64,000 bases of DNA from a virus, in IMG/VR virus record IMGVR_UViG_3300007734_000761, positions 32,001-96,000 of that record, one strand, 5' to 3'. The position numbers and the translations under genes are program-made. The notes beneath the pieces are model-generated. The model worked only from the letters and a program-made list of their open reading frames with translations. It had not been told where the DNA came from and made no database searches. Below are positions 2,976-42,390 of the stretch, in pieces. Positions within the stretch are counted from its first letter, which is position 1, and each line of letters starts with the position of its first letter.

Positions 2976-4272
2976 TTTTATTTAATTTAGGTAATGTTGG
3001 TAAAACTAGTTTTGGTGTCTTTCTTACATTTTTATTATAATATTCTTTTAATGTTTCAACCATTTTTTCAAAACTGAAATTTGATTTAGCATAGTGGGTT
3101 TGACGTTTTGCATTAGCTTCATATTTTTTATAATTACTCCAAACATCTACCATCTTTTGAGAAGCAGAAACAAAATCTGCTTCAAACCAACTACTTTCTT
3201 TTACTAAAATATTTTCTACTACAGCAGATGGATGAATTGGTTGTAATCTTCCTTCAACCAAACTAACAAATTCACGATTTAGAAAATCTACGTGTCCTGA
3301 CCATCCACTAGCAATGATTGGTTTTTTAAACATACTAAACTCTAATAAAGGACGACCAAAACCTTCACCTTTGGTAAAATTAATCATAGCTTTTACTTTA
3401 GGATGGTTATAAAGATGATTCATATCTTCTTCTTCTAATTCTCCATGTATCAAGTAGATATTAGGTAACTTTTTAGCTTTTACTGTACTTTTAATACTAT
3501 TAATTTTATTTAATACTTCAGTACGATCCATAATACTTCCATTATGAATTGCTGTTTTTAAAATTAAAGCAGGGGCATTATGTTTATTTTTAAATGTTTC
3601 TAAAAATACTTTAATAGTTTGACCTACATTTTTTCTGTCTTGACCAAATTCCCCTTGTAACCAATGTCCTACAAATAAAAATGCGAAGTTCTCATCAATG
3701 TTGTCGAGAGATGTGATTAAATCTGTTTCTGGTAGGTCATTGTTATTTATTTCAAAATATGTATTTAAATCAACACCTTCAAACAAAACTTCTACTGGTT
3801 TTTGAATTTGAATTCTTCTTGTAACTTCTCCATTAGGATTTCTTTCTTCCGCTTGAGTTGCTTCAAATACTCTTTTAGCGTGTACTGAGCTAACTAAAGT
3901 TAAATCCATACGGTTAATTCCATCAATCCAACTAGGATGACATAATGTTGTTTCAATACCTGCTGTTACTCCAATGTTATAATTTCCGATAGGTTGAAAC
4001 TCATTTGGAATTGTAATTTGCATCCAAACATCAGGTTTTTGATTAAGAGGTTGTTGAAAAGGTAACATTTTTGGTTCTAACCATCCCCATTCTTCTTTAT
4101 GGTCTTGAATGTATCCCCAAGGTGTTTCACCCCAACGTTGAGGCATTACCCAAACATCCCATTCGTCTTTTTTAGCTTCAACAGTGGCTTTGACAAAATC
4201 ACGTGCTCGTGAACCATATCCACTATAGGTGTCAATAGGGCAACTAATAACTACATATTGTTTTTGTTCCAT
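2968..4272 (-). CDS. Glycosyltransferase, GT-B fold (GT4-like)
   Basis: SGYG N-terminus, DRKN, GEGFGRPLLE (ExF/G-x7-E) motif. Confidence 0.85.
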   Translation of the reverse strand: MEQKQYVVISCPIDTYSGYGSRARDFVKATVEAKKDEWDVWVMPQRWGETPWGYIQDHKEEWGWLEPKMLPFQQPLNQKPDVWMQITIPNEFQPIGNYNIGVTAGIETTLCHPSWIDGINRMDLTLVSSVHAKRVFEATQAEERNPNGEVTRRIQIQKPVEVLFEGVDLNTYFEINNNDLPETDLITSLDNIDENFAFLFVGHWLQGEFGQDRKNVGQTIKVFLETFKNKHNAPALILKTAIHNGSIMDRTEVLNKINSIKSTVKAKKLPNIYLIHGELEEEDMNHLYNHPKVKAMINFTKGEGFGRPLLEFSMFKKPIIASGWSGHVDFLNREFVSLVEGRLQPIHPSAVVENILVKESSWFEADFVSASQKMVDVWSNYKKYEANAKRQTHYAKSNFSFEKMVETLKEYYNKNVRKTPKLVLPTLPKLNKIA

Positions 4273-14760: not shown

Positions 14761-15219
14761 TTATTCGTTGTTAATGTTGTGTTTGAGGGTCATAGCATCT
14801 TCTAAAGACTTTTGAAGTGCTTTCGAAAACGCTTTTTTGTTTAGTGGAACCTCATTATTTTCAACATTAAGGAAAGCAGCAAACACATATGTTTGTCTTT
14901 TTGCTATTCCTTTAAAACAACCAGTGCCTATGCACACTTGTGTCGTAACAATATAGTCTTTTTTTAGCCATTGAAGGCCTATGATATTAAGTATTCTTTG
15001 TGGACTAGAAATTTCATCTAAACTTACACTTACATCCATTCCGTTTGAGTCTAAACTATATCCTTGGTCAACTAAAATTTCTTCCAGTGTTTCTTTTATA
15101 CCAAAAACAACCGGTCTGTCTCCTATTTTTTCAATAGGAGTACTGTTACTTACATTACTTACCTTAACTGAAATGGGAGGTTGAATTGATAACAATATAG
15201 AAGCTAAAACACTTAACAT
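14761..15219 (-). CDS. Secreted protein, possibly a short CsgG-like fold
   Basis: Hydrophobic N-terminus; FGIKETLEEIL and FSKALQKSLEDA echo LGFAESVLDYL and VGKATRKSLETA in 18444..19139. Confidence 0.4.
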   Translation of the reverse strand: MLSVLASILLSIQPPISVKVSNVSNSTPIEKIGDRPVVFGIKETLEEILVDQGYSLDSNGMDVSVSLDEISSPQRILNIIGLQWLKKDYIVTTQVCIGTGCFKGIAKRQTYVFAAFLNVENNEVPLNKKAFSKALQKSLEDAMTLKHNINNE

Positions 15220-15231
15220 CAGTAATAAATA

Positions 15232-16434
15232 TTAATAAGTTACAGAACCTGCATATCCTGGAGCAATGATATATAGATTTAATGTTCCACCTGATGTTAA
15301 AGTACCTGTTGTATGGTTAGTTACTCCTGGATAAGTTGCTCTAACGTTAGTAGTAGATGCTACAATAGCATTGTATTGAGATGTTGTAAAAATCCTAACA
15401 TCAGGAGCTGTTCTCCACTTAGAAAAAATTCCTGCCTTCCTCGCAGCAACATAATACTTATCTGCAATTGAAATTACTCCATCGTCATTAACATCAAATC
15501 TATGAAACGATAAGCCATTCCTAACTACTTTTCCTAAAATAATATTTGATACTCCTTGAATGTCTGAAGTTGTGTAAGCTTGAATTCTTGTTGGAGCATC
15601 TATTTGAATTGTAAATTGATCTCCAGCAACAGTGGTTCTTGAGAAAGAATAGTAACCTGATGAGTTGGTATTAACTGTAGCATCTAAAGAAGTAGAAGAA
15701 CTTGTTGTAGTTGATGTAGTATTTATTTCCCAACTCGTACTAGCAAAAGTACCTGCTGTAATAAATGAACTAGCCATCCAGGCACTGCCTGTTGATATAC
15801 CCATCACCTCTTGGTTTGAACCGTCGGCAGTAAATGTTCTCCAGACTACTATTTGTTTTGAGGCTTGGTTTTTAATAAAATATAAATCCCAAACATAGTT
15901 AATTCCAGTCTGATTGTATTTGCAGTTACCCTCGTATCTAACTCTAAACACATCTCCGTAAGTTCCGTCTGTGTAACTTTCAGTTGAAACAAAAGAAACG
16001 TTGTTATCTGTAGAACCATTATCTACTGATCCAATATGAATAGTAGGTTGATTAGGATTAGTAGCATTTCCGTTATATCCTGAACTAGAACTTGTACCAA
16101 AAGTAAACCATGAGTTAGCATTTACGTGACCTGAAGAATAGCTGGTGCCTGCATAAGAAGGACTAAACCCAGAAGGGAATGTAATAGCAACAGATGCTTC
16201 GTCTGAATTAGCTGTTGAGAATAATACAGAAGTTCCTCTTCCTCTATCTGAGGGAATGCCAGATGTTATTTTAGTTAATGTTCCTGATTTAGTAGTAGCT
16301 CCAGCTGCACTTTTATAAAGTTTAACAGGAACATTACTAGCACCAGATCCGTTTGCATTATAAAGATATCCTGAATAGGTAAATTGGCCTAGTAATGAAT
16401 TTGTTAATAATAAAAATACAAGTAATAATCTCAT
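15232..16434 (-). CDS. Secreted dockerin-like domain protein
   Basis: Signal peptide; TTSDIQGVSNIILG...FDVNDDGVISIADK; no T9SS sorting domain. Confidence 0.7.
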   Translation of the reverse strand: MRLLLVFLLLTNSLLGQFTYSGYLYNANGSGASNVPVKLYKSAAGATTKSGTLTKITSGIPSDRGRGTSVLFSTANSDEASVAITFPSGFSPSYAGTSYSSGHVNANSWFTFGTSSSSGYNGNATNPNQPTIHIGSVDNGSTDNNVSFVSTESYTDGTYGDVFRVRYEGNCKYNQTGINYVWDLYFIKNQASKQIVVWRTFTADGSNQEVMGISTGSAWMASSFITAGTFASTSWEINTTSTTTSSSTSLDATVNTNSSGYYSFSRTTVAGDQFTIQIDAPTRIQAYTTSDIQGVSNIILGKVVRNGLSFHRFDVNDDGVISIADKYYVAARKAGIFSKWRTAPDVRIFTTSQYNAIVASTTNVRATYPGVTNHTTGTLTSGGTLNLYIIAPGYAGSVTY

Positions 16435-17774
16435 AACAGTAATTTGGCTCCCATTAATATTTGATAGTTAAGTACACTCTGAGTAGCAATATAAGTACCA
16501 CCGCCGGTTAATCCAACTCCAAATGTTTTAGTCAGTTTATAATTAAAGTTAAAGAAGGGAATAACGATTGGCTTTGATTCAAATAAAGACTCTGTGTAGT
16601 ACTTAGTATAAGGGGAATACACACAGGCAGCAATAATAGTAGCATCTAAAGCTTTTGCTAACTTACCTTTATACATAAACCCTCCAATTGCTAAAGTTGA
16701 AATCATTTCTTCTCCGTAAAGATTTCCATAAGTTCCAGCTCCTCCATAAAGTGCTGTAAAGTTCTTAACTGAGTTTACTCTTACAAATAAAGCTGTATTA
16801 GACCAAGATTTAGGTAAAATACCAAAAGCATCTGAAACGACGTTAATGTGTTTGTTACCTTTCTTATTTATTCCAATCCAAGATCTCATTACTGAAAGGT
16901 TTCCAATTCGAGCATTAACCATGTAATCAGCTGAAAATCCTAATGAGGCTGTTCCATCTCCTTTTACTCGAGTAAATGACATAGTTCCTCTAGCATCTCT
17001 AGAACCATCGTCTGCTTTTTGTACTCCAACAATATCCCCGGTAACTAAGATTGCAGGCTTGGCAACCTCTGCTTTTGCCTTTGAGGTTGATTTAGCTGTT
17101 GAATTAGAAGACTCTTTTTGAGTTTCGGTTTTTTGTTCCTCTACTTGTTGTTCAGTTGATTTATCTTCTGTTTTTGGTTCTTCTGTTTTACCTTGCCCCG
17201 ACCCTGAACCGGATCCGCTGCCATTGCCACTGCTACCAGAAGAGGAACCACTGTTACCACTAGAATTGCCACTGTTTGAATTATTACTTCCATCGGGGTT
17301 CTGGTTCGTATTCGACTGAGGATTTCCATCTTCTTGTTTATTATCTGAGGTACTAACCGATCCTGAACCCGTTGAAGTTGCTCCGCCTACATTTGTTCCC
17401 ACTGACGTGAATGACCCGACGTTTGCAATAGCATTTAAATTCATTACACTATTAACAACATTCGAAGCCAAGTTAGTCGATGTGGTTGTTGTAGTTGTAG
17501 CTACAGCCCCTTGACATGGAGAGGTTGACTTGTATTTGTTATAAATATCATTCAACCATATGTCAAATGTACCATCTTGTAATTCTGTGTAGTTAAATGT
17601 CTTTACTTGTCCATAATAAACAATTACTATAGGACTGTTCATATCAGCTGTTATAAACTTGCTTTCTTTCGTGCAGGGATCAATATAACTAAATAAAAAA
17701 GATTGAGAATAACTAAGTTTTGATATACATAACAATATCAATAATAAGAGTGTTTTATATAAACTTCCACCCAT
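16431..17774 (-). CDS. Secreted protein with S/G/N linker and putative C-terminal beta-barrel
   Basis: Signal peptide after ATG 17774; low-complexity linker; amphipathic strands ending NYQILMGAKLLL. Confidence 0.55.
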   Translation of the reverse strand: MGGSLYKTLLLLILLCISKLSYSQSFLFSYIDPCTKESKFITADMNSPIVIVYYGQVKTFNYTELQDGTFDIWLNDIYNKYKSTSPCQGAVATTTTTTSTNLASNVVNSVMNLNAIANVGSFTSVGTNVGGATSTGSGSVSTSDNKQEDGNPQSNTNQNPDGSNNSNSGNSSGNSGSSSGSSGNGSGSGSGSGQGKTEEPKTEDKSTEQQVEEQKTETQKESSNSTAKSTSKAKAEVAKPAILVTGDIVGVQKADDGSRDARGTMSFTRVKGDGTASLGFSADYMVNARIGNLSVMRSWIGINKKGNKHINVVSDAFGILPKSWSNTALFVRVNSVKNFTALYGGAGTYGNLYGEEMISTLAIGGFMYKGKLAKALDATIIAACVYSPYTKYYTESLFESKPIVIPFFNFNYKLTKTFGVGLTGGGTYIATQSVLNYQILMGAKLLL

Positions 17775-18354
17775 ATCCTTTAATAGTTTTACAAAGTCCT
17801 CTACAACACATAGAAATATTTCCATTGGGTATATTGTAATATAGTGTAGGTTCTTTTAATGAATCCCATATTTTTATTAAATTTCCATTTAAATCAAACT
17901 GGCCTACTTTTTTATATTTTTTCTTATTTTCTTCAGTTCTGTCTCTTTCTTTTTGTATTTTACTTATTTTAGATAAACCTTCTGGTGTGTGAAAGTTTAC
18001 CCCTAAATGAGTTTCTCTCATTCTTTGTTTATTATACTCACTTTGTTTTTTACCTTTCATTGGAGATACTCTACCAACATAAAGGTTACTTCTATATTGT
18101 TTTTCTTTATCATTCATTATTTGTCTACCTCCACCACCATTGTTTTTATTTTCTAAAACATAACCCCAATTTTTAAATAAACTAATATAATAACCCTCCC
18201 AAAAAACCCATTCATTATCATTTACAGTATCAATAATAAAATAACTTGTTGGTTGTTTTTTATTTTTATGTTGACCTATTCTACTAGAAGTATTTTTTGA
18301 TTTTCCAATATAAAAAGGAATATTATTTTTTTCTAAAACATATATATCTATCAT
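17755..18354 (-). mobile_element. GIY-YIG-type homing endonuclease with NUMOD3/NUMOD1-like tail
   Basis: IYVL...FYIGKS...R; SPMKGKKQSE; VGQFDLNGNLIKIWDS...GYGWKF. Confidence 0.85.
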
Positions 18355-18367
18355 ACATGTATAAATA

Positions 18368-18460
18368 TTAGAGGTCTATGTAGGAATACATGAAGGACTG
18401 CCCGTTTAAAGACAGTCCTACCATAAATAAAAATAATAATATTTTAGTTTTTAAAGACAC
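18368..18460 (-). pseudogene. Orphaned original 5' end of the 16431 gene
   Basis: GTG-started 30 aa MSLKTKILLFLFMVGLSLNGQSFMYSYIDL* matches KTLLLLILLCISKLSYSQSFLFSYIDP downstream of the endonuclease. Confidence 0.75.
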
Positions 18461-19139
18461 CGTTTCTGATTAAGCTTTCAATTACTTTAGTTGTAGCTGT
18501 CTCTAAAGACTTACGAGTTGCTTTACCTACTGTACTCTGTGAAAACTTCATATCAAGACTTTTCAAAAACGATTCTCCTACTTTAGTTGATTCACCTTCG
18601 CCTGATCCAATGTAAACTTGACCGGTCATGGCATCAACGAACCTAACTTGGAGACGTATGAAAGTAGTGACAACAACTTTGCTTTTGCCTTTTTCAACGG
18701 TCTCATCTTCATCAACAGCAAAATCGGCCACAGTAACATAAACAAAGTAACGAGCAGCTTTAATCTTGCCCTTTCCATCAATGGGCTCTTCAAATACTCC
18801 TTTTTTAGAGGCTTTAAATTGGGTAACCATCCGTTCTTTAATTTCGGATTTTTCTTCGGTAAATATAAATCTTCCTGTTTCATCTAAATAATCTAGTACT
18901 GATTCGGCAAAACCTAAACCAACATTTTTTTCTTGAAGGTCTGGGTATAAAGCAAGAACCTTAGTCATGTCAACATTGATTACTTGCACAGCATATTTTA
19001 AACTGTCTGTGTAATTAGACACTGTTGAAATGTCTTTAGTTTCAATAACATCCTGCTCGGTAGTAGTCTTCATAGAACCACAACCAGCTAATGTCATAAC
19101 CACTAAGGTCATAAACTTATTGAACCATTTTTTTACCAT
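18444..19139 (-). CDS. CsgG/HfaB-family lipoprotein
   Basis: LAGC lipobox; LDETGRFIFTEE, AARYFVYVTVADF, LQVRFVDAMTGQV pattern. Confidence 0.75.
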   Translation of the reverse strand: MVKKWFNKFMTLVVMTLAGCGSMKTTTEQDVIETKDISTVSNYTDSLKYAVQVINVDMTKVLALYPDLQEKNVGLGFAESVLDYLDETGRFIFTEEKSEIKERMVTQFKASKKGVFEEPIDGKGKIKAARYFVYVTVADFAVDEDETVEKGKSKVVVTTFIRLQVRFVDAMTGQVYIGSGEGESTKVGESFLKSLDMKFSQSTVGKATRKSLETATTKVIESLIRNGVFKN

Positions 19140-19456
19140 GGATCTTCTTCTTTAGGTTCAGGTTTAGCAGCAGGAGCAGGAGTAGCAGCAGCTGGTTTTT
19201 CAATTACACGTTCTTTAATAACCGTGTTGGTACCACCGCTTGACTGTTTCTGTTGGTTAGTGTTGTTGTTTTGTAAGTTAATCACAACAGGTGCACCAGG
19301 TGCTGTCTGTTCTGTTTTAGCTTCTTCTTTAGGCTCTTCTCCACCGCCTAAGTGGGTTGCAAACCAGGCTCCGCCGGCTGTAACTGCTGTAGTGATAGCA
19401 CCAATAATTGCTTTCTTGGTAGCTGACATTACGCTTTCTTCTTTTTCTTCTGACAT
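19133..19456 (-). CDS. Membrane-anchored low-complexity protein
   Basis: One N-terminal TM segment; N/Q-rich then P/A-rich tail. Confidence 0.55.
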   Translation of the reverse strand: MSEEKEESVMSATKKAIIGAITTAVTAGGAWFATHLGGGEEPKEEAKTEQTAPGAPVVINLQNNNTNQQKQSSGGTNTVIKERVIEKPAAATPAPAAKPEPKEEDPW

Positions 19457-19458
19457 GT

Positions 19459-19803
19459 TTATTCGTTATTTAAAGTGTTTGATATTGCTATTCCATCTTC
19501 TTCATCAACTTTTTGAACTAACATTTTATCTCGGTCTTCTGAATTAAACCAGTAATCAATTACTTTGTTTAAGTTACCTACGAAAGCACCTAATAAAATA
19601 AGTAACATTTCTTTCCAAGATTCAATAATTTCAATCTTAGCAAAAATAGCTACGTTAATTCCCAAAACAATAAAAAAGAATAATCCTAATACAATTGCTG
19701 TAATCTTCCAACGATTAACTTGCATTTGTTGTAACATGTAATAGAAACGATTTTTATCGTCTACTTTTACATAATCTGATTTGAATAAATTTCCTAATTT
19801 CAT
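19459..19803 (-). CDS. Two-TM membrane protein
   Basis: Two hydrophobic helices, then IDYWFNS. Confidence 0.6.
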   Translation of the reverse strand: MKLGNLFKSDYVKVDDKNRFYYMLQQMQVNRWKITAIVLGLFFFIVLGINVAIFAKIEIIESWKEMLLILLGAFVGNLNKVIDYWFNSEDRDKMLVQKVDEEDGIAISNTLNNE

Positions 19804-21689
19804 TTATTTATAATTATTTTAGAAGTTGAAATTTTAGTATCTGTTTTTACTGATAAAAAGTAAAAACCATCTTCAAGTTTAGTTAAATTAACAACATACT
19901 TATATTCACCAACAGGCATTTTAGTGTTGATAACTTCCATAACTTTTCTGCCTACTAAGTCACTAACTGCAACTTCTGTTTGAGATTCTTGATCTACTCT
20001 GAATTGAAGAGTAATTTCACCACTATTTGGATTAGGGAATACAATAAGATCTTCTAATTCGGTTAATTTAACAGGCTTATTAATTCTTCTTACTTCAATT
20101 ACTCCCATTGCTGGAGTAATGTTCATGTCTCTTGCATCATTACCTCCAACAAACTTAGGTCCGGTCCAAATAGCAGCACTTGACCATTCTTCTTGTGGTT
20201 TTTTGGCGATAAATTGCATTACTAAAATTTGTTCACCGTCGTTGATTAACTGATTTCCTTTTAAGTCAGCTGCACCGAAAGCAACCACTCCGTCAGAAGG
20301 GTTAGTATATGAAGTCCAGTTCATCATTTTTTCAGTCAAATCGATTTTCTTGAACTCAAGTAATGCTGTGTCGTATTTTAACTCTAATTGAACTGCCCCT
20401 AATTGTTTTCCGTTAGTAAGCATTTTAACAGGAACGTTAACTAAGTTACCTTCGTCAACTTTAACTTTAGGCATATTAACCTCAATAGTCTCAGTTACAT
20501 TATCGTATTGAACTGTGTTGTCGATGATGTAGTTTTTAGCATTAACGGGGTTAATAATCTTAATAGGAGTCAAACGAGCCATTTTAAAGCCTGTATTATT
20601 TGCATCACCCTTAACTGCTACATAGTAAGTAATAGAATCTTTACCATCAATTGAGTAATTAAAGTTATTAATAGTAGCGTAAGTACCTGTTAAGTTAGTA
20701 GCTGATCCGTTGATTGCATTGTATTCGGCAACTGTGAAGAACATTACATCCTTCTTGCCATTAGGCCAAGCCGTGAATCTACCTGCCAATCTTCCATATA
20801 CTGAATAAACGTCTGCAATACTAATTGAACCATCAGTGTTGTTTACATCCATTGTATAATAATCAAAGCCTGAAGGAGTGTATTGTGCTAAGATAGACTG
20901 GTTAATCTTTTGAGCGTCTGCAGTTGAAATAACAGATCCAGGAGTCATTGTATCTCCTTTAACCACCATTCTAACATCCCAGTAAGTAGTATCTAAGAAT
21001 TTTCTAAATACAACATGACCTAATGAGTTAGTTGCTTTAGCTTCTACTTGAGTCCAAGATCCACCTGGTGCTTTCTTTTCTAAAGACACCCACAAGTTTT
21101 TAGCATCTGAACCAGTAACGTTCTTAAACTTAGCAGCAAAGCGTAATACTTTTTGATTGAAACGACCACCGTAAGAATAAACTACTAAAGTAGTATCGTT
21201 ACCAAAGTTAGTAGCTGCTTTGTTTGCGAATGATTTAACACCTGCAACTTTCAAAGTCTTAATAGAATCTAAATTGTTCCATACCGAGCTTCCGGCATGA
21301 GTAAAAGTCAAATCAAAAGTAGCACCGTTTGAATAATTAAATGTTGAACTAGTTCCTGTGTAAACTAGAGTAACAGTTAAGAATCCTTGAGCATTACTAT
21401 CCACATATTGAAGATATTGGTCAGTAGCAGAAATCTTTAATGAAGGAACAACTGCTGTAAATGCAGTGTTGTCATAAAATACTCTGTACTGCATACCAGT
21501 GATCTTTTCAGATGTAGAAGTATTGTAGAAGTGTAAAGGGGCAACAGTTTGCCCGGCAGTAGTAGTTGCTACTTGATAACCAGAATCAATTACCACCCAG
21601 TGCCCTGTTCCAGGTGATGTTGCTGACGATTGTGCTGATGCTTCGAAAATGGCTAAAGCCGTTAATAAGAATGCGATTATTTTTTTCAT
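19800..21689 (-). CDS. Cohesin + dockerin-like protein with T9SS type A sorting domain
   Basis: Signal peptide; ITGMQYRVFYD; STADAQKI...DVNNTDGSISIADV; VNVPVKM...LGAVQLELKYDTALLEF; VFPNPNSG...DLVGRKV...DGFYFL...KIII. Confidence 0.85.
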   Translation of the reverse strand: MKKIIAFLLTALAIFEASAQSSATSPGTGHWVVIDSGYQVATTTAGQTVAPLHFYNTSTSEKITGMQYRVFYDNTAFTAVVPSLKISATDQYLQYVDSNAQGFLTVTLVYTGTSSTFNYSNGATFDLTFTHAGSSVWNNLDSIKTLKVAGVKSFANKAATNFGNDTTLVVYSYGGRFNQKVLRFAAKFKNVTGSDAKNLWVSLEKKAPGGSWTQVEAKATNSLGHVVFRKFLDTTYWDVRMVVKGDTMTPGSVISTADAQKINQSILAQYTPSGFDYYTMDVNNTDGSISIADVYSVYGRLAGRFTAWPNGKKDVMFFTVAEYNAINGSATNLTGTYATINNFNYSIDGKDSITYYVAVKGDANNTGFKMARLTPIKIINPVNAKNYIIDNTVQYDNVTETIEVNMPKVKVDEGNLVNVPVKMLTNGKQLGAVQLELKYDTALLEFKKIDLTEKMMNWTSYTNPSDGVVAFGAADLKGNQLINDGEQILVMQFIAKKPQEEWSSAAIWTGPKFVGGNDARDMNITPAMGVIEVRRINKPVKLTELEDLIVFPNPNSGEITLQFRVDQESQTEVAVSDLVGRKVMEVINTKMPVGEYKYVVNLTKLEDGFYFLSVKTDTKISTSKIIINK

Positions 21690-22147
21690 TTCTGTATGTT
21701 AATTAGTTGAGTTATTGCATGTTCTTTCAACCAAGGTTCAGGATTAGATAACTTGTTAATAAAATCAAGCTCATACCTGTAACACCATGCTTCCTCTTGT
21801 TCAGGAATTATAATGTACCCTTTTTGCAAAACATGTAAATGTAAACTCTCATGAACTAACACTACAGCGAGGTTGTTAATTGAATTTAACTGTACATCTT
21901 TAACAGAAATTAAGATTGTTCCTTTCTCTCCATACTTTCCTTCGTTAGAAGAAAATCCAGAAATCCAGAAATCTACTTTTTCACAAACACTGTCGATTAA
22001 TTGATATTTTTCAATATCAGTTTTTTTAATCAACAATAATGCAGAGTCTACTTGTCTGTTCCATCCATCTCCTACTTTACTCACTTCAATTTGAGCGTAA
22101 GTAAAACAAGTTAGTGAAAAACTAACAAGTAAGACTAGCATTTTCAT
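21686..22147 (-). CDS. Secreted HExxH putative metallopeptidase
   Basis: Signal peptide; LVHESLH...EEAWCY. Confidence 0.6.
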   Translation of the reverse strand: MKMLVLLVSFSLTCFTYAQIEVSKVGDGWNRQVDSALLLIKKTDIEKYQLIDSVCEKVDFWISGFSSNEGKYGEKGTILISVKDVQLNSINNLAVVLVHESLHLHVLQKGYIIIPEQEEAWCYRYELDFINKLSNPEPWLKEHAITQLINIQK

Positions 22148-22165
22148 CAAGAATAAATATGTAAT

Positions 22166-22321
22166 TTAATCTTTATTTTTGAGATTCTTGTAAATAACTA
22201 CAAGATTAGCTATAATAGCAACACAAATAGAAATTATTGTAAGGGTTGTTACTGGGTTCATCATAGCTAAACCAGTCGCTCCTAAAGTAAAAGTATTACT
22301 TACTAAGGTGTCTTTATCCAT
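22166..22321 (-). CDS. 51-aa membrane protein (missing from the ORF track)
   Basis: MDKDTLVSNTFTLGATGLAMMNPVTTLTIISICVAIIANLVVIYKNLKNKD; ATATTTAT at 22326-22333. Confidence 0.6.
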   Translation of the reverse strand: MDKDTLVSNTFTLGATGLAMMNPVTTLTIISICVAIIANLVVIYKNLKNKD

Positions 22322-27880: not shown

Positions 27881-28600
27881 TTATTTTTTATATTTCCAGA
27901 GATAGCCACCAGCTTGTTTTTGTTTACCTGCTAAGCATCCTGCTATATCTCCTTTTCCTAACCACTTTTCAGCTTCTTTTCTACTAGGCCAATCTTGAAT
28001 AAAGTTACCTTCTAAATCATACTGAGTGATTGGTTTATTATTTCTTGTTTTTCCTATGCTTTTATTAAGTCTTTTTTGTATATGTTCTTGAGATTGAGGT
28101 CCTTTTGGTTTTCTCATTTTTTGTTTAGTTTCTTCAGTTCTTGGTTGACCCTTAGGATAGCCATTTTTTCCAATCATATTTTTTCTATTTTCTTCAGTTC
28201 TTGGTTGACCTTTAGGATAGCCATTAGTTCCAGTTTTACTAATACTCTGTTTTATAGCCATTGTATTTTTTTCTTCTTCACTTCTTTCATCCCACATTTG
28301 TTTAGCTTGTAAACTTTTATTATGTTTTTGTTCTTCAGTCCAACTTTCCATTCCTCCCCCTCCTTCTTTTCTTGGATTTACAACATCAAAACCCCAACCA
28401 ATAAAACTTTGTATCCACATTGTTTCTATTGGTCTCCATTTTTTTCTATCTAAAGAATCTACTTGGTCAATAATAATATAATCCTCACTACCATAAGTTC
28501 TTTTATGGTCATTTTTTCTTTTGTTAGGATTTTTAGTTTTTCCTATATAAACTTTATTAGAATCTCCATAACAGTTTTCAACTAAATAAATGTAAGTCAT
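27881..28600 (-). mobile_element. GIY-YIG homing endonuclease downstream of polB
   Basis: YIYLVE...VYIGKT...R; duplicated NGYPKGQPRTEE; ITQYDLEGNFI...GGYLWKY. Confidence 0.85.
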
Positions 28601-41865: not shown

Positions 41866-42390
41866 TTATCGGTGTAATGTATTTTTTATAGTTCCCCAAG
41901 ACACATTATATTCTTTACTCAAATCACAAATACGATATCCTTGATCATATTTATGTTTTATTTCATTAGATTGAATATCTGATAGCATTTTATTGCGATT
42001 CCATTTATTTACTCTAGGTTTTCTCATTTTTTGTTTTTGTTCTTCGGTATACGTAAAATCTTTTGGCATTCCTGCTGCCCATGGAGCCTTTCTTCCTTTA
42101 TATTTTTGTGATTGTTTTATTTTTGATTCTTCTTTCCATTCACTACTTCCTCCCCCGCCATTTGGGTTTGGATTTACTATTTCAAAACCCCATTGTCTAA
42201 ACTGTTCAATCCAATATTTTTCTAGGGGTGTCCAATCTTCCTTTTTTATAGAGTTGATTTCATCAATAATAGTATAAGTAATGTGACCACCGTATGTTTT
42301 ACGGTGATCACTTACTCGTTTTGTAGGATTTTTTGTTTTACCTACATAAACTTTATTACTTTCTATTTCAACTAAATAAATATAAGTCAT
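41866..42390 (-). mobile_element. GIY-YIG homing endonuclease with C-terminal HTH, downstream of nrdJ
   Basis: MTYIYLVE...VYVGKTKNP..R; LSKEYNVSWGTI. Confidence 0.82.

Follow-up and report, generated by a model that had tools for sequence, protein, structure and literature searches.

We analyzed a window of 64,000 nt (bases 32001–96000 of a 176,311-bp uncultured virus genome, IMG/VR record IMGVR_UViG_3300007734_000761) in which a free-standing GIY-YIG homing endonuclease gene (HEG) lies inside the coding region of a phage gene for a predicted secreted protein. It is highly probable that the 695-nt cassette carrying this HEG colonized a coding site and rescued its target gene with a start codon, a signal peptide and re-spelled codons of its own. 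The genome (GC content 32%) encodes a T4-type DNA polymerase and a ribonucleotide reductase, and the minus strand is the coding strand of every gene around the locus. Alleles with and without the cassette are referred to as HEG+ and HEG-free, respectively, and the window sequence is called WIN where alleles are compared.

Layout of the interrupted gene

The upstream neighbor of the target is a gene for a CsgG/LpoB-like lipoprotein of 231 aa (18444..19139, −), with 78–99% identity in related loci. A Pfam search gave no match for this protein, and its language-model neighbors included CsgG and LpoB clusters at 0.94–0.95, which serves as a lead only. In HEG-free relatives, the final 17 nt of this gene overlap the native start of the target. 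The window shows the same arrangement: a GTG at 18460, 17 nt within the CsgG-like gene, opens an open reading frame (ORF) of 30 codons (MSLKTKILLFLFMVGLSLNGQSFMYSYIDL; 18460..18368, −) that encodes the native signal peptide and QSFMYSYID and ends in a TAA stop (18370–18368). Its first 29 codons (18460..18374) are native and are followed by CTC TAA supplied by the cassette. Since this stub matches the true N-terminus of HEG-free relatives (62–97% identity), we regard it as the orphaned native head of the gene, presumably no longer used, and not as a chance ORF.

The cassette itself (17679..18373, −) separates GAC from CCC in the native ..SYID/PCTKE of a conserved phage gene, nine codons beyond its signal-peptide cleavage site; the cassette boundary has a one-C ambiguity, and native sequence resumes at CCC TGC (17678). 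It holds a 13-nt leader that includes the gene-start motif ATATTTAT, the endonuclease ORF starts (18354) 13 nt past the stub stop, and the cassette ends in a replacement 5′ end of 32 codons (17679..17774, −). The new ATG (17774) lies 17 nt before the endonuclease stop, which gives an ORF overlap of 20 nt, and the endonuclease codons for GYGWKFI-stop, read in the +1 frame, double as this ATG and the n-region, MGGSLYK. Next come a new hydrophobic core (TLLLLILLCISKLSYS) and the re-spelled copy, QSFLFSYID, after which the hybrid ORF (MGGSLYKTLLLLILLCISKLSYSQSFLFSYIDPCTKE...) runs through the native body to its end at 16431. An alternative in-frame ATG at 17825 likewise lies inside the endonuclease gene. 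The hybrid target gene (16431..17774, −) is intact, encodes 447 aa and is present in one copy in the genome. Its coding region thus holds an in-frame, diverged duplicate (QSFMYSYID in the stub, and QSFLFSYID followed by PCTKE in the cassette-headed gene); HEG-free alleles have a single copy.

An earlier note, made from the letters of this DNA alone, had described a GTG stub overlapping the CsgG-like stop, closed by L-stop and followed at once by ATATTTAT, and an intact gene starting at an ATG within the last endonuclease codons. Both descriptions proved accurate when read on the minus strand. The note had further supposed that the cassette brings a start codon and a signal peptide of its own. 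Both are indeed cassette-borne; the start and n-region do not stand beside the endonuclease gene but share its conserved GY-x-WKFI codons at the C-terminus, read in another frame.

The target protein is phage-specific and predicted to be secreted. It comprises an N-domain, a low-complexity linker rich in T, S, G and N, and a beta-barrel-like domain at the C-terminus. The last of these weakly resembles porin/autotransporter outer-membrane beta-barrels (a lead only), and the atlas neighbors of the protein are phage-only clusters. Secretion makes the signal peptide indispensable, which explains what the cassette must carry. Similarly, the native GTG overlaps the CsgG-like stop, and with no gap between the two genes, any insertion has to come with a start of its own. 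With a native start overlap of 17 nt and a new one of 20 nt, translational coupling was plausibly rebuilt.

The inserted gene encodes a GIY-YIG homing endonuclease

The endonuclease gene (17755..18354, −; 199 aa) encodes an N-terminal GIY-YIG catalytic domain, a NUMOD-type linker and a C-terminal DNA-binding module. The protein matched Pfam PF01541 (E-value of 1e-4; 23.0 bits, just over the 22.6 cut-off) and phrog_314, "homing endonuclease", in PHROG (E-value of 1e-7). Among its close relatives, 6 of 7 matched GIY-YIG and 4 matched I-HmuI_NUMOD-like, with NUMOD1 and NUMOD3 also found. Residues Y5, Y15, G17, R25, H29, E53 and N69 were invariant across 48 homologues, and the ratio of nonsynonymous to synonymous divergence (dN/dS) of the gene across lineages was 0.15–0.33.

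An AlphaFold model of the endonuclease (mean predicted local distance difference test score of 85) pointed to the same family. Specifically, residues 1–73 aligned with the I-TevI catalytic domain (1ln0_B; Z of 8.1, root mean square deviation [rmsd] of 2.5 Å over 71 residues, 16% sequence identity) and residues 135–199 with the DNA-binding part of I-HmuI (1u3e_M; Z of 7.4, rmsd of 3.1 Å over 64 residues). These fold matches came from a second aligner; Foldseek searches of the PDB with the model gave no match at an E-value of ≤0.001, and a sequence profile search of the PDB gave no match either. With its catalytic domain, its linked DNA-binding module and a presence/absence polymorphism (see below), the protein fits the I-TevI/Seg type of GIY-YIG homing endonuclease, and it would be predicted to make a site-specific double-strand cut in HEG-free alleles and to show biased inheritance in mixed infections.

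Empty alleles carry the stub-type head without interruption

Using the 447-aa target protein as query, we collected 72 related viral loci from IMG/VR, of which the 59 that reach the end of the CsgG-like gene have a readable junction. The endonuclease was absent from all 72 loci, and in 58 of the 59 readable ones a stub-type head runs uninterrupted into PCTKE. This HEG-free head reads (V/M)SLKTKIL..GLSLNG QSFxYSYID PCTKE and starts at a GTG or ATG that overlaps the CsgG-like stop, as the stub does. The empty allele that the earlier note had predicted, with the stub-type head joined directly to PCTKE, was therefore borne out. Among the HEG-free alleles, we saw neither a scar nor the downstream-type N-terminus that the note had named as evidence to the contrary.

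A pattern search of IMG/VR for a cassette-type head without an endonuclease ("hit and run") found none. With the replacement head alone (residues 1–45) as query, only native-type heads were returned, but this search is insensitive (known HEG+ alleles were missed) and is no evidence of uniqueness. Relatives of the window endonuclease in IMG/VR and JGI metagenome contigs were at most 47% identical and lay at other sites, and blastn of GenBank phages with region 16400–19200 gave no match; the close HEG+ relatives came only from an index of 5.8 billion proteins. The one exception among the 59 readable junctions, the HEG-free homologue at L011:4060–4280, appears to have a frameshift in the N-terminal domain (tblastn gave two segments, and the ORF restarts at 4241), which reflects either a pseudogene or an assembly error.

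The endonuclease occupies the same junction in four lineages

Twelve further metagenomic loci from independent samples carry the endonuclease at the same junction, with protein identities of 99, 97, 85, 73 and 66%. Together with the window, this makes 13 HEG+ loci, which fall into four lineages. In the WIN type (the window and L171–L173), the left junction is identical, with the full stub and a leader containing ATATTTAT. The 85% type (L087–L089) has the same stub, ending in IDL-stop, and ATATTTAT before the probable true endonuclease start. In the 73% type (L090–L092), the stub is shortened to 13 codons (L090:3935–3967), and a canonical terminator hairpin and then ATATTTAT lie ahead of the endonuclease. 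In the 66% type (L093, L174 and L175), only a remnant of ~7 codons, MKSLKTK-stop, is left (L174:398–424), followed by a canonical terminator hairpin and a leader homologous to that of WIN.

In all four lineages, the target ORF is intact, and its head overlaps the endonuclease 3′ end and is of the cassette type, ..(L/S)(Y/H)(K/N)-hydrophobic-(Y/F)S/QSF.., unlike every native head. The n-region is in each case the +1 reading of the conserved codons K-G-(Y/F)-x-W-K-F-(I/T)-stop, and the ATG of the WIN and 85% types comes from GGA TAT GNN. The F-containing lineages (L090 and L093/L174) have no ATG at the WIN position and must start 12–17 codons further upstream, in a stretch where the +1 frame is open in all four lineages. 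We also observed that gene callers give 415 aa at L090:4554–5936 and 460 aa at L091:4554–5936 for the same target sequence, indicating that the true start is hard to place in cassette-type heads that lack the WIN-type ATG.

Could the insert instead be removed at the RNA or protein level, as a group I intron, as an intein or by ribosomal bypass, with the stub as the real start? GIY-YIG endonucleases are often encoded by group I introns in T4-like phages (PMC2988022), but we consider removal of the insert at this locus very improbable. No Rfam family was found at an E-value of ≤1 in 17400–18700, and the five matches at E-values up to 10 (CRISPR repeats, small RNAs and a frameshift element) fell far under their gathering scores and included no intron. 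Outside the endonuclease ORF, the insert has just 13 nt on the upstream side and 66 nt on the downstream side; these 79 nt are coding, and no intron ribozyme core was matched in Rfam. Moreover, the stub closes with a stop and its frame differs from that of the endonuclease, and an in-frame start, a signal peptide and a nine-codon duplicate would be pointless in an insert that is spliced out. Finally, the target gene is intact in the L090 and L174 types even though little of their stub is left. Splicing of the insert is, judging from these features, unlikely.

Since the window comes from an uncultured IMG/VR genome, a chimeric assembly or a mis-joined contig also had to be considered. However, contigs built from independent samples by independent assemblers (JGI, ENA and Logan) show identical junctions in L171–L173, L087–L089 and L090–L092, and the likelihood of such an artifact is negligible.

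The junction also hosts a second, unrelated kind of endonuclease. L176:370–981 (+) encodes a 203-aa endonuclease with an H-N-H motif and NUMOD3 (in Pfam, NUMOD3 scored over the cut-off and HNH below threshold) between the same two genes. Its target gene (960–2285) has an ATG inside ..NGWHFSKK-stop, read as MAFFKK, which continues into the hydrophobic core (IILLFLFMVGLSLNG) and hairpin (see below) of the native gene. From these sequences, the junction appears to be an insertion hotspot, and the overlap-start solution appears to have arisen in two endonuclease families.

Signs of recent mobility

Among WIN, L171, L172 and L173, the segment 18370..17679 was 96–99% identical (25 variable sites in 692 nt), in comparison with 89–93% for the stub, 90–94% for the CsgG-like gene and 72–83% for the first 60 nt on the right. 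The last variable site of the left flank is at 18378 and variation is dense again from 17676, i.e., within 5 nt of the junctions, so the insert behaves as a discrete unit placed at SYID/P, where the earlier note had put it. Between WIN and L171, the endonuclease had a synonymous divergence (dS) of 0.048, compared with 0.357 for the CsgG-like gene and 0.453 for the cohesin gene. HEG+ and HEG-free genomes are, in addition, interleaved when compared by the CsgG-like gene (WIN is nearest HEG-free L011, L087 is nearest HEG-free L010 and L090 is nearest HEG-free L018/L019). A WIN-type cassette far less diverged than its flanks, together with this interleaving, indicates an active, recently mobile element, and the pattern is consistent with spread by homing with very short co-conversion tracts. 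A dN/dS estimate for the target gene (WIN versus L172) was not used, as its dN of 0.87 is implausible and probably reflects a misaligned low-complexity linker.

Between lineages the pattern is different. The cassettes and flanks of WIN and L087 are similarly diverged (85–92%), and endonuclease identity in the 85, 73 and 66% types declines roughly with flank divergence, which suggests that vertical descent also contributes. On this evidence, the endonuclease might be an old vertical resident that is no longer mobile, with HEG-free genomes produced by loss or by recombination with HEG-free relatives. The near-identity of the WIN-type cassettes and their low dS (0.05 against 0.36–0.45 in neighboring genes) argue against such a history, the dN/dS values show that the ORF has been maintained and the HEG-free alleles bear no scar or cassette-type head. 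We therefore rate long residence without movement as improbable.

Re-spelling of the target codons and predicted self-immunity

The nine aligned codons of the stub and the replacement head all differ (12 of 27 nt): CAG TCC TTC ATG TAT TCC TAC ATA GAC versus CAA TCT TTT TTA TTT AGT TAT ATT GAT. The earlier note had reported this difference correctly, but its view of the new copy as a recoded target held only in part; QSFLFS is re-spelled, whereas the last three codons, TAT ATT GAT, have the commonest spelling of HEG-free alleles. Cassette-specific re-spelling is limited to QSFLFS (10–27 nt upstream of the insertion point) and the signal peptide, and substitutions private to the window occupy 8 of the first 18 nt of QSFLFS before dropping to background level.

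We scored mismatches against the consensus of 48 distinct HEG-free alleles, with positions given relative to the insertion point. Over −30..−10, the WIN head had 10 mismatches in 21 positions and the GIY-YIG HEG+ heads 10–12, while HEG-free alleles had a median of 3 and a maximum of 8. In comparison, −9..−1 and +1..+21 of the HEG+ heads fell inside the natural range. Because the new copy restores −9..+21 almost exactly, immunity would have to come from the re-spelling of −10..−30 and the separation of the half-sites; cleavage resistance of the re-spelled copy is a prediction from sequence that is logically required. I-TevI cuts 23–25 nt upstream of its insertion site (PMC2988022), a distance that corresponds to the region in which the window head is re-spelled. 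No I-TevI-type CNNNG motif was found by eye at −23..−27 of the native site, and we thus claim no specific cleavage site.

The replacement head could also have no adaptive content and be a diverged allele from an AT-richer donor or a product of drift in situ, with immunity by site disruption only. All synonymous changes are toward A/T, and GC content is 24% in the cassette and 21% in the replacement head against 32% in the genome. The spellings CAA and AGT are native in distant HEG-free clades (e.g., L022 and L024), and the match of the last three codons to the commonest native spelling fits as well. We regard this account as possible but the less probable one, on two grounds. First, with −9..+21 recreated, a difference in some determinant upstream of −9 is needed to spare the HEG+ genome from cleavage. 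Second, GGGCAGTCC, which is near-invariant in native alleles, is independently missing in all four HEG lineages, whose mismatch counts over −30..−10 exceed the HEG-free maximum.

A conserved hairpin and a gene-start motif

In native alleles, GGGCAGTCC forms the 3′ arm of a 9-bp hairpin, GGACTGTCT-N6-GGGCAGTCC, that spans the signal-peptide cleavage codons; every HEG-free allele has it in its native 5′ coding region (e.g., L002:5033–5058). The window retains it in the stub (18395..18418, −; loop TTAAAC). In a gap-free alignment anchored on the insertion point, pairing was complete in 333 of 333 cells across 37 distinct alleles, with compensatory changes in 5 of the 9 pairs; 0 of 500 shuffles equaled this, and slid controls paired at 35–55%. 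The compensatory doubles (e.g., GGATTG/CAATCC, GCTCTG/CAGAGC, AGTCTG/CAGACT and GGTTTG/CAAACC) in some cases alter an amino acid. Folding energies ranged from −16 to −21 kcal/mol (z of −4 to −7.5), with −18.3 kcal/mol (z of −6.1) for the stub; the cassette-type head is unstructured (−0.4 kcal/mol). At L012:2815–2906, a two-codon insertion precedes QSF (..STGWAQSF), and there a shifted 10-bp hairpin (GGGTCTGTCC/GGATGGGCCC) can be made out by eye, as if re-created.

A T-rich tail follows the native hairpin, and a simple scan called the L002 hairpin terminator-like but not the window copy, which has a weaker T tail. A combined sigma-70 and terminator scan of the window region found promoter-like sites no more often than in shuffles, and 0 terminators. 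The hairpin is kept in the stub of the WIN and 85% types and lost in the 73% and 66% types, where a canonical terminator hairpin is in its place. This pattern suggests a functional requirement for a hairpin behind the lipoprotein gene, whether as an attenuator, a terminator or a 3′-end stabilizer, and the stub may have been retained for this reason. In native alleles, the hairpin may act as an attenuator, a 3′-end stabilizer or an endonuclease determinant.

The gene-start motif ATATTTAT of the cassette leader (18361..18368, −) lies 6 nt before the endonuclease ATG and overlaps the last A of the stub stop. The window contains 28 copies, compared with 12.7 expected, and 21 of the 25 minus-strand copies (e.g., sites 10907, 15232, 25108, 27316, 28614 and 61526 among the 25) sit 2–23 nt upstream of an ORF start (ORFs of at least 60 aa). 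The motif precedes two of the three endonuclease ORFs in the window (18354 and 28600), and a copy at 42383 lies just within the annotated start of the third (42390), for which a downstream true start is possible. It is likewise found ahead of the endonuclease in L087 and L090. Given these positions, ATATTTAT is probably a phage promoter or gene-start element that gives very short leaders.

A wider proposal, to which we give slightly less than an even chance, is that homing endonucleases can colonize junctions between overlapping, translationally coupled genes by evolving a portable head, with its start codon and signal-peptide n-region overprinted on conserved G-(Y/F)-x-W-K-F codons at the endonuclease C-terminus, and that two unrelated families, GIY-YIG in the window and HNH/NUMOD3 in L176, did so at this one junction. 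If this holds, the re-spelled −10..−30 block marks the cleavage determinant, and the stub is kept for a functional attenuator or terminator hairpin, for which other cassette lineages substitute a canonical terminator. The element would then rewire the transcription and translation of its target besides preserving the product.

Proposed mechanism and points against it

We propose that insertion left the native head behind as a 30-codon stub closed by the cassette-supplied stop, and that translation from the new ATG would yield a full-length pre-protein whose mature form differs from the native one in two residues. The endonuclease would cut HEG-free alleles, and repair from a HEG+ genome would then copy in the cassette, with co-conversion tracts that are very short. 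Protection of the HEG+ genome itself would come from the re-spelled −10 to −30 region and the separation of its half-sites.

Several points weigh against rescue of the target gene by the cassette as outlined here. Every genome used is an uncultured metagenomic assembly, and the mechanism is read from sequence. The assignment of 17774 as the new start competes with the in-frame ATG at 17825, which is also open, and the absence of an ATG at the WIN position in the L090 and L093/L174 lineages implies that their start lies further upstream. Three left junctions (stubs of 29, 13 and ~7 codons) may reflect several insertion orders and counts. Co-conversion tracts of <10 nt are shorter than in usual descriptions of T4 homing, and the distribution of the endonuclease may be partly vertical, because its divergence among distant lineages roughly tracks phage divergence. 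Lastly, the re-spelling may represent plain divergence plus AT bias and not selected immunity.

Genes around the cassette

The target gene belongs to a run of genes for exported proteins (14761–22321, −). The same run contains the CsgG/LpoB-like lipoprotein gene and a gene for a protein with cohesin and type IX secretion system sorting domains (19800–21689; Pfam Cohesin and Por_Secre_tail), which suggests a Bacteroidota host and an envelope-directed module. Two more GIY-YIG genes are found in the window (27881–28600, − and 41866–42390, −), immediately after the genes for DNA polymerase and ribonucleotide reductase. Both resemble ordinary insertions between genes, and neither overlaps the start of the next gene.

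Comparison with known systems and significance

The locus provides a natural series, comprising the empty site, four endonuclease lineages, three left junctions and a second endonuclease family, that is useful for studying the origin of the cassette, the seat of immunity and the lower limit of co-conversion tract length. It also bears on annotation, since short "orphan" signal-peptide ORFs beside endonuclease genes may be relics of native heads, and gene callers disagree on the starts.

Within phages, the endonuclease resembles I-TevI and the Seg proteins in having a GIY-YIG catalytic domain, a linker and a C-terminal DNA-binding module, but its gene is neither intron-borne nor intergenic, and its identity to them is low (16% to 1ln0). 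Free-standing homing endonucleases have been described as intergenic (PMC2988022). Exceptions among T4-like phages are split genes, namely mobE in Aeh1 nrdA and seg in gene 43 of Aeromonas phage 25 (reviewed in PMC2988022), which share with the window a free-standing HEG inside a coding region whose function is retained. These, however, yield two functional protein fragments and have no duplicated or re-spelled segment.

The T4 MobA/gene 60 element follows a matching logic. According to the account of Bonocora et al. (2011) given in bioRxiv 10.1101/2022.08.31.505936, it is a phage homing cassette in a coding region that provides a new start and an N-terminal extension for the downstream part, along with a diverged "homologous region" that replaces deleted target codons in a different spelling; the carried sequence has an immunity function, and closely related insert-free phages exist. 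In that account, the enzyme is of the HNH type, the topoisomerase is split into two polypeptides that reassemble and a 50-nt translational bypass is needed for immunity. The window element, in contrast, has a GIY-YIG enzyme and a single intact polypeptide, orphans only a dispensable signal-peptide stub and uses no bypass. The literature we searched, with incomplete coverage, contained no phage case of gene-head replacement like that of the window.

A parallel in overall design is found in mitochondria, where mobile ORFs (mORFs) carry a foreign gene C-terminus, as reported for Allomyces macrogynus atp6 (Paquin et al. 1994, as cited in PMC3630166) and for atp6, atp9, cox2 and nad3 of Glomus (Beaudet et al. 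2013, PMC3630166). In both settings, a free-standing endonuclease gene (LAGLIDADG or GIY-YIG) lies within a coding region, a diverged duplicate of the displaced gene end keeps the ORF whole, the native end becomes a remnant (presumably unused in the window) and the two copies differ mostly synonymously. The window element differs in replacing the 5′ and not the 3′ end, so that a start codon, translation initiation and a signal peptide are needed, in overprinting its start and n-region on endonuclease 3′ codons and in residing in a large phage. Replacement of a gene end was thus known from fungal mitochondria and, in part, from phage T4, and replacement of a gene head with its export signal is not known from the literature searched. 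Besides gene splitting and introns or inteins, homing endonucleases would therefore have a further route into coding DNA, i.e., swapping the head of a gene, including its start codon and export signal.

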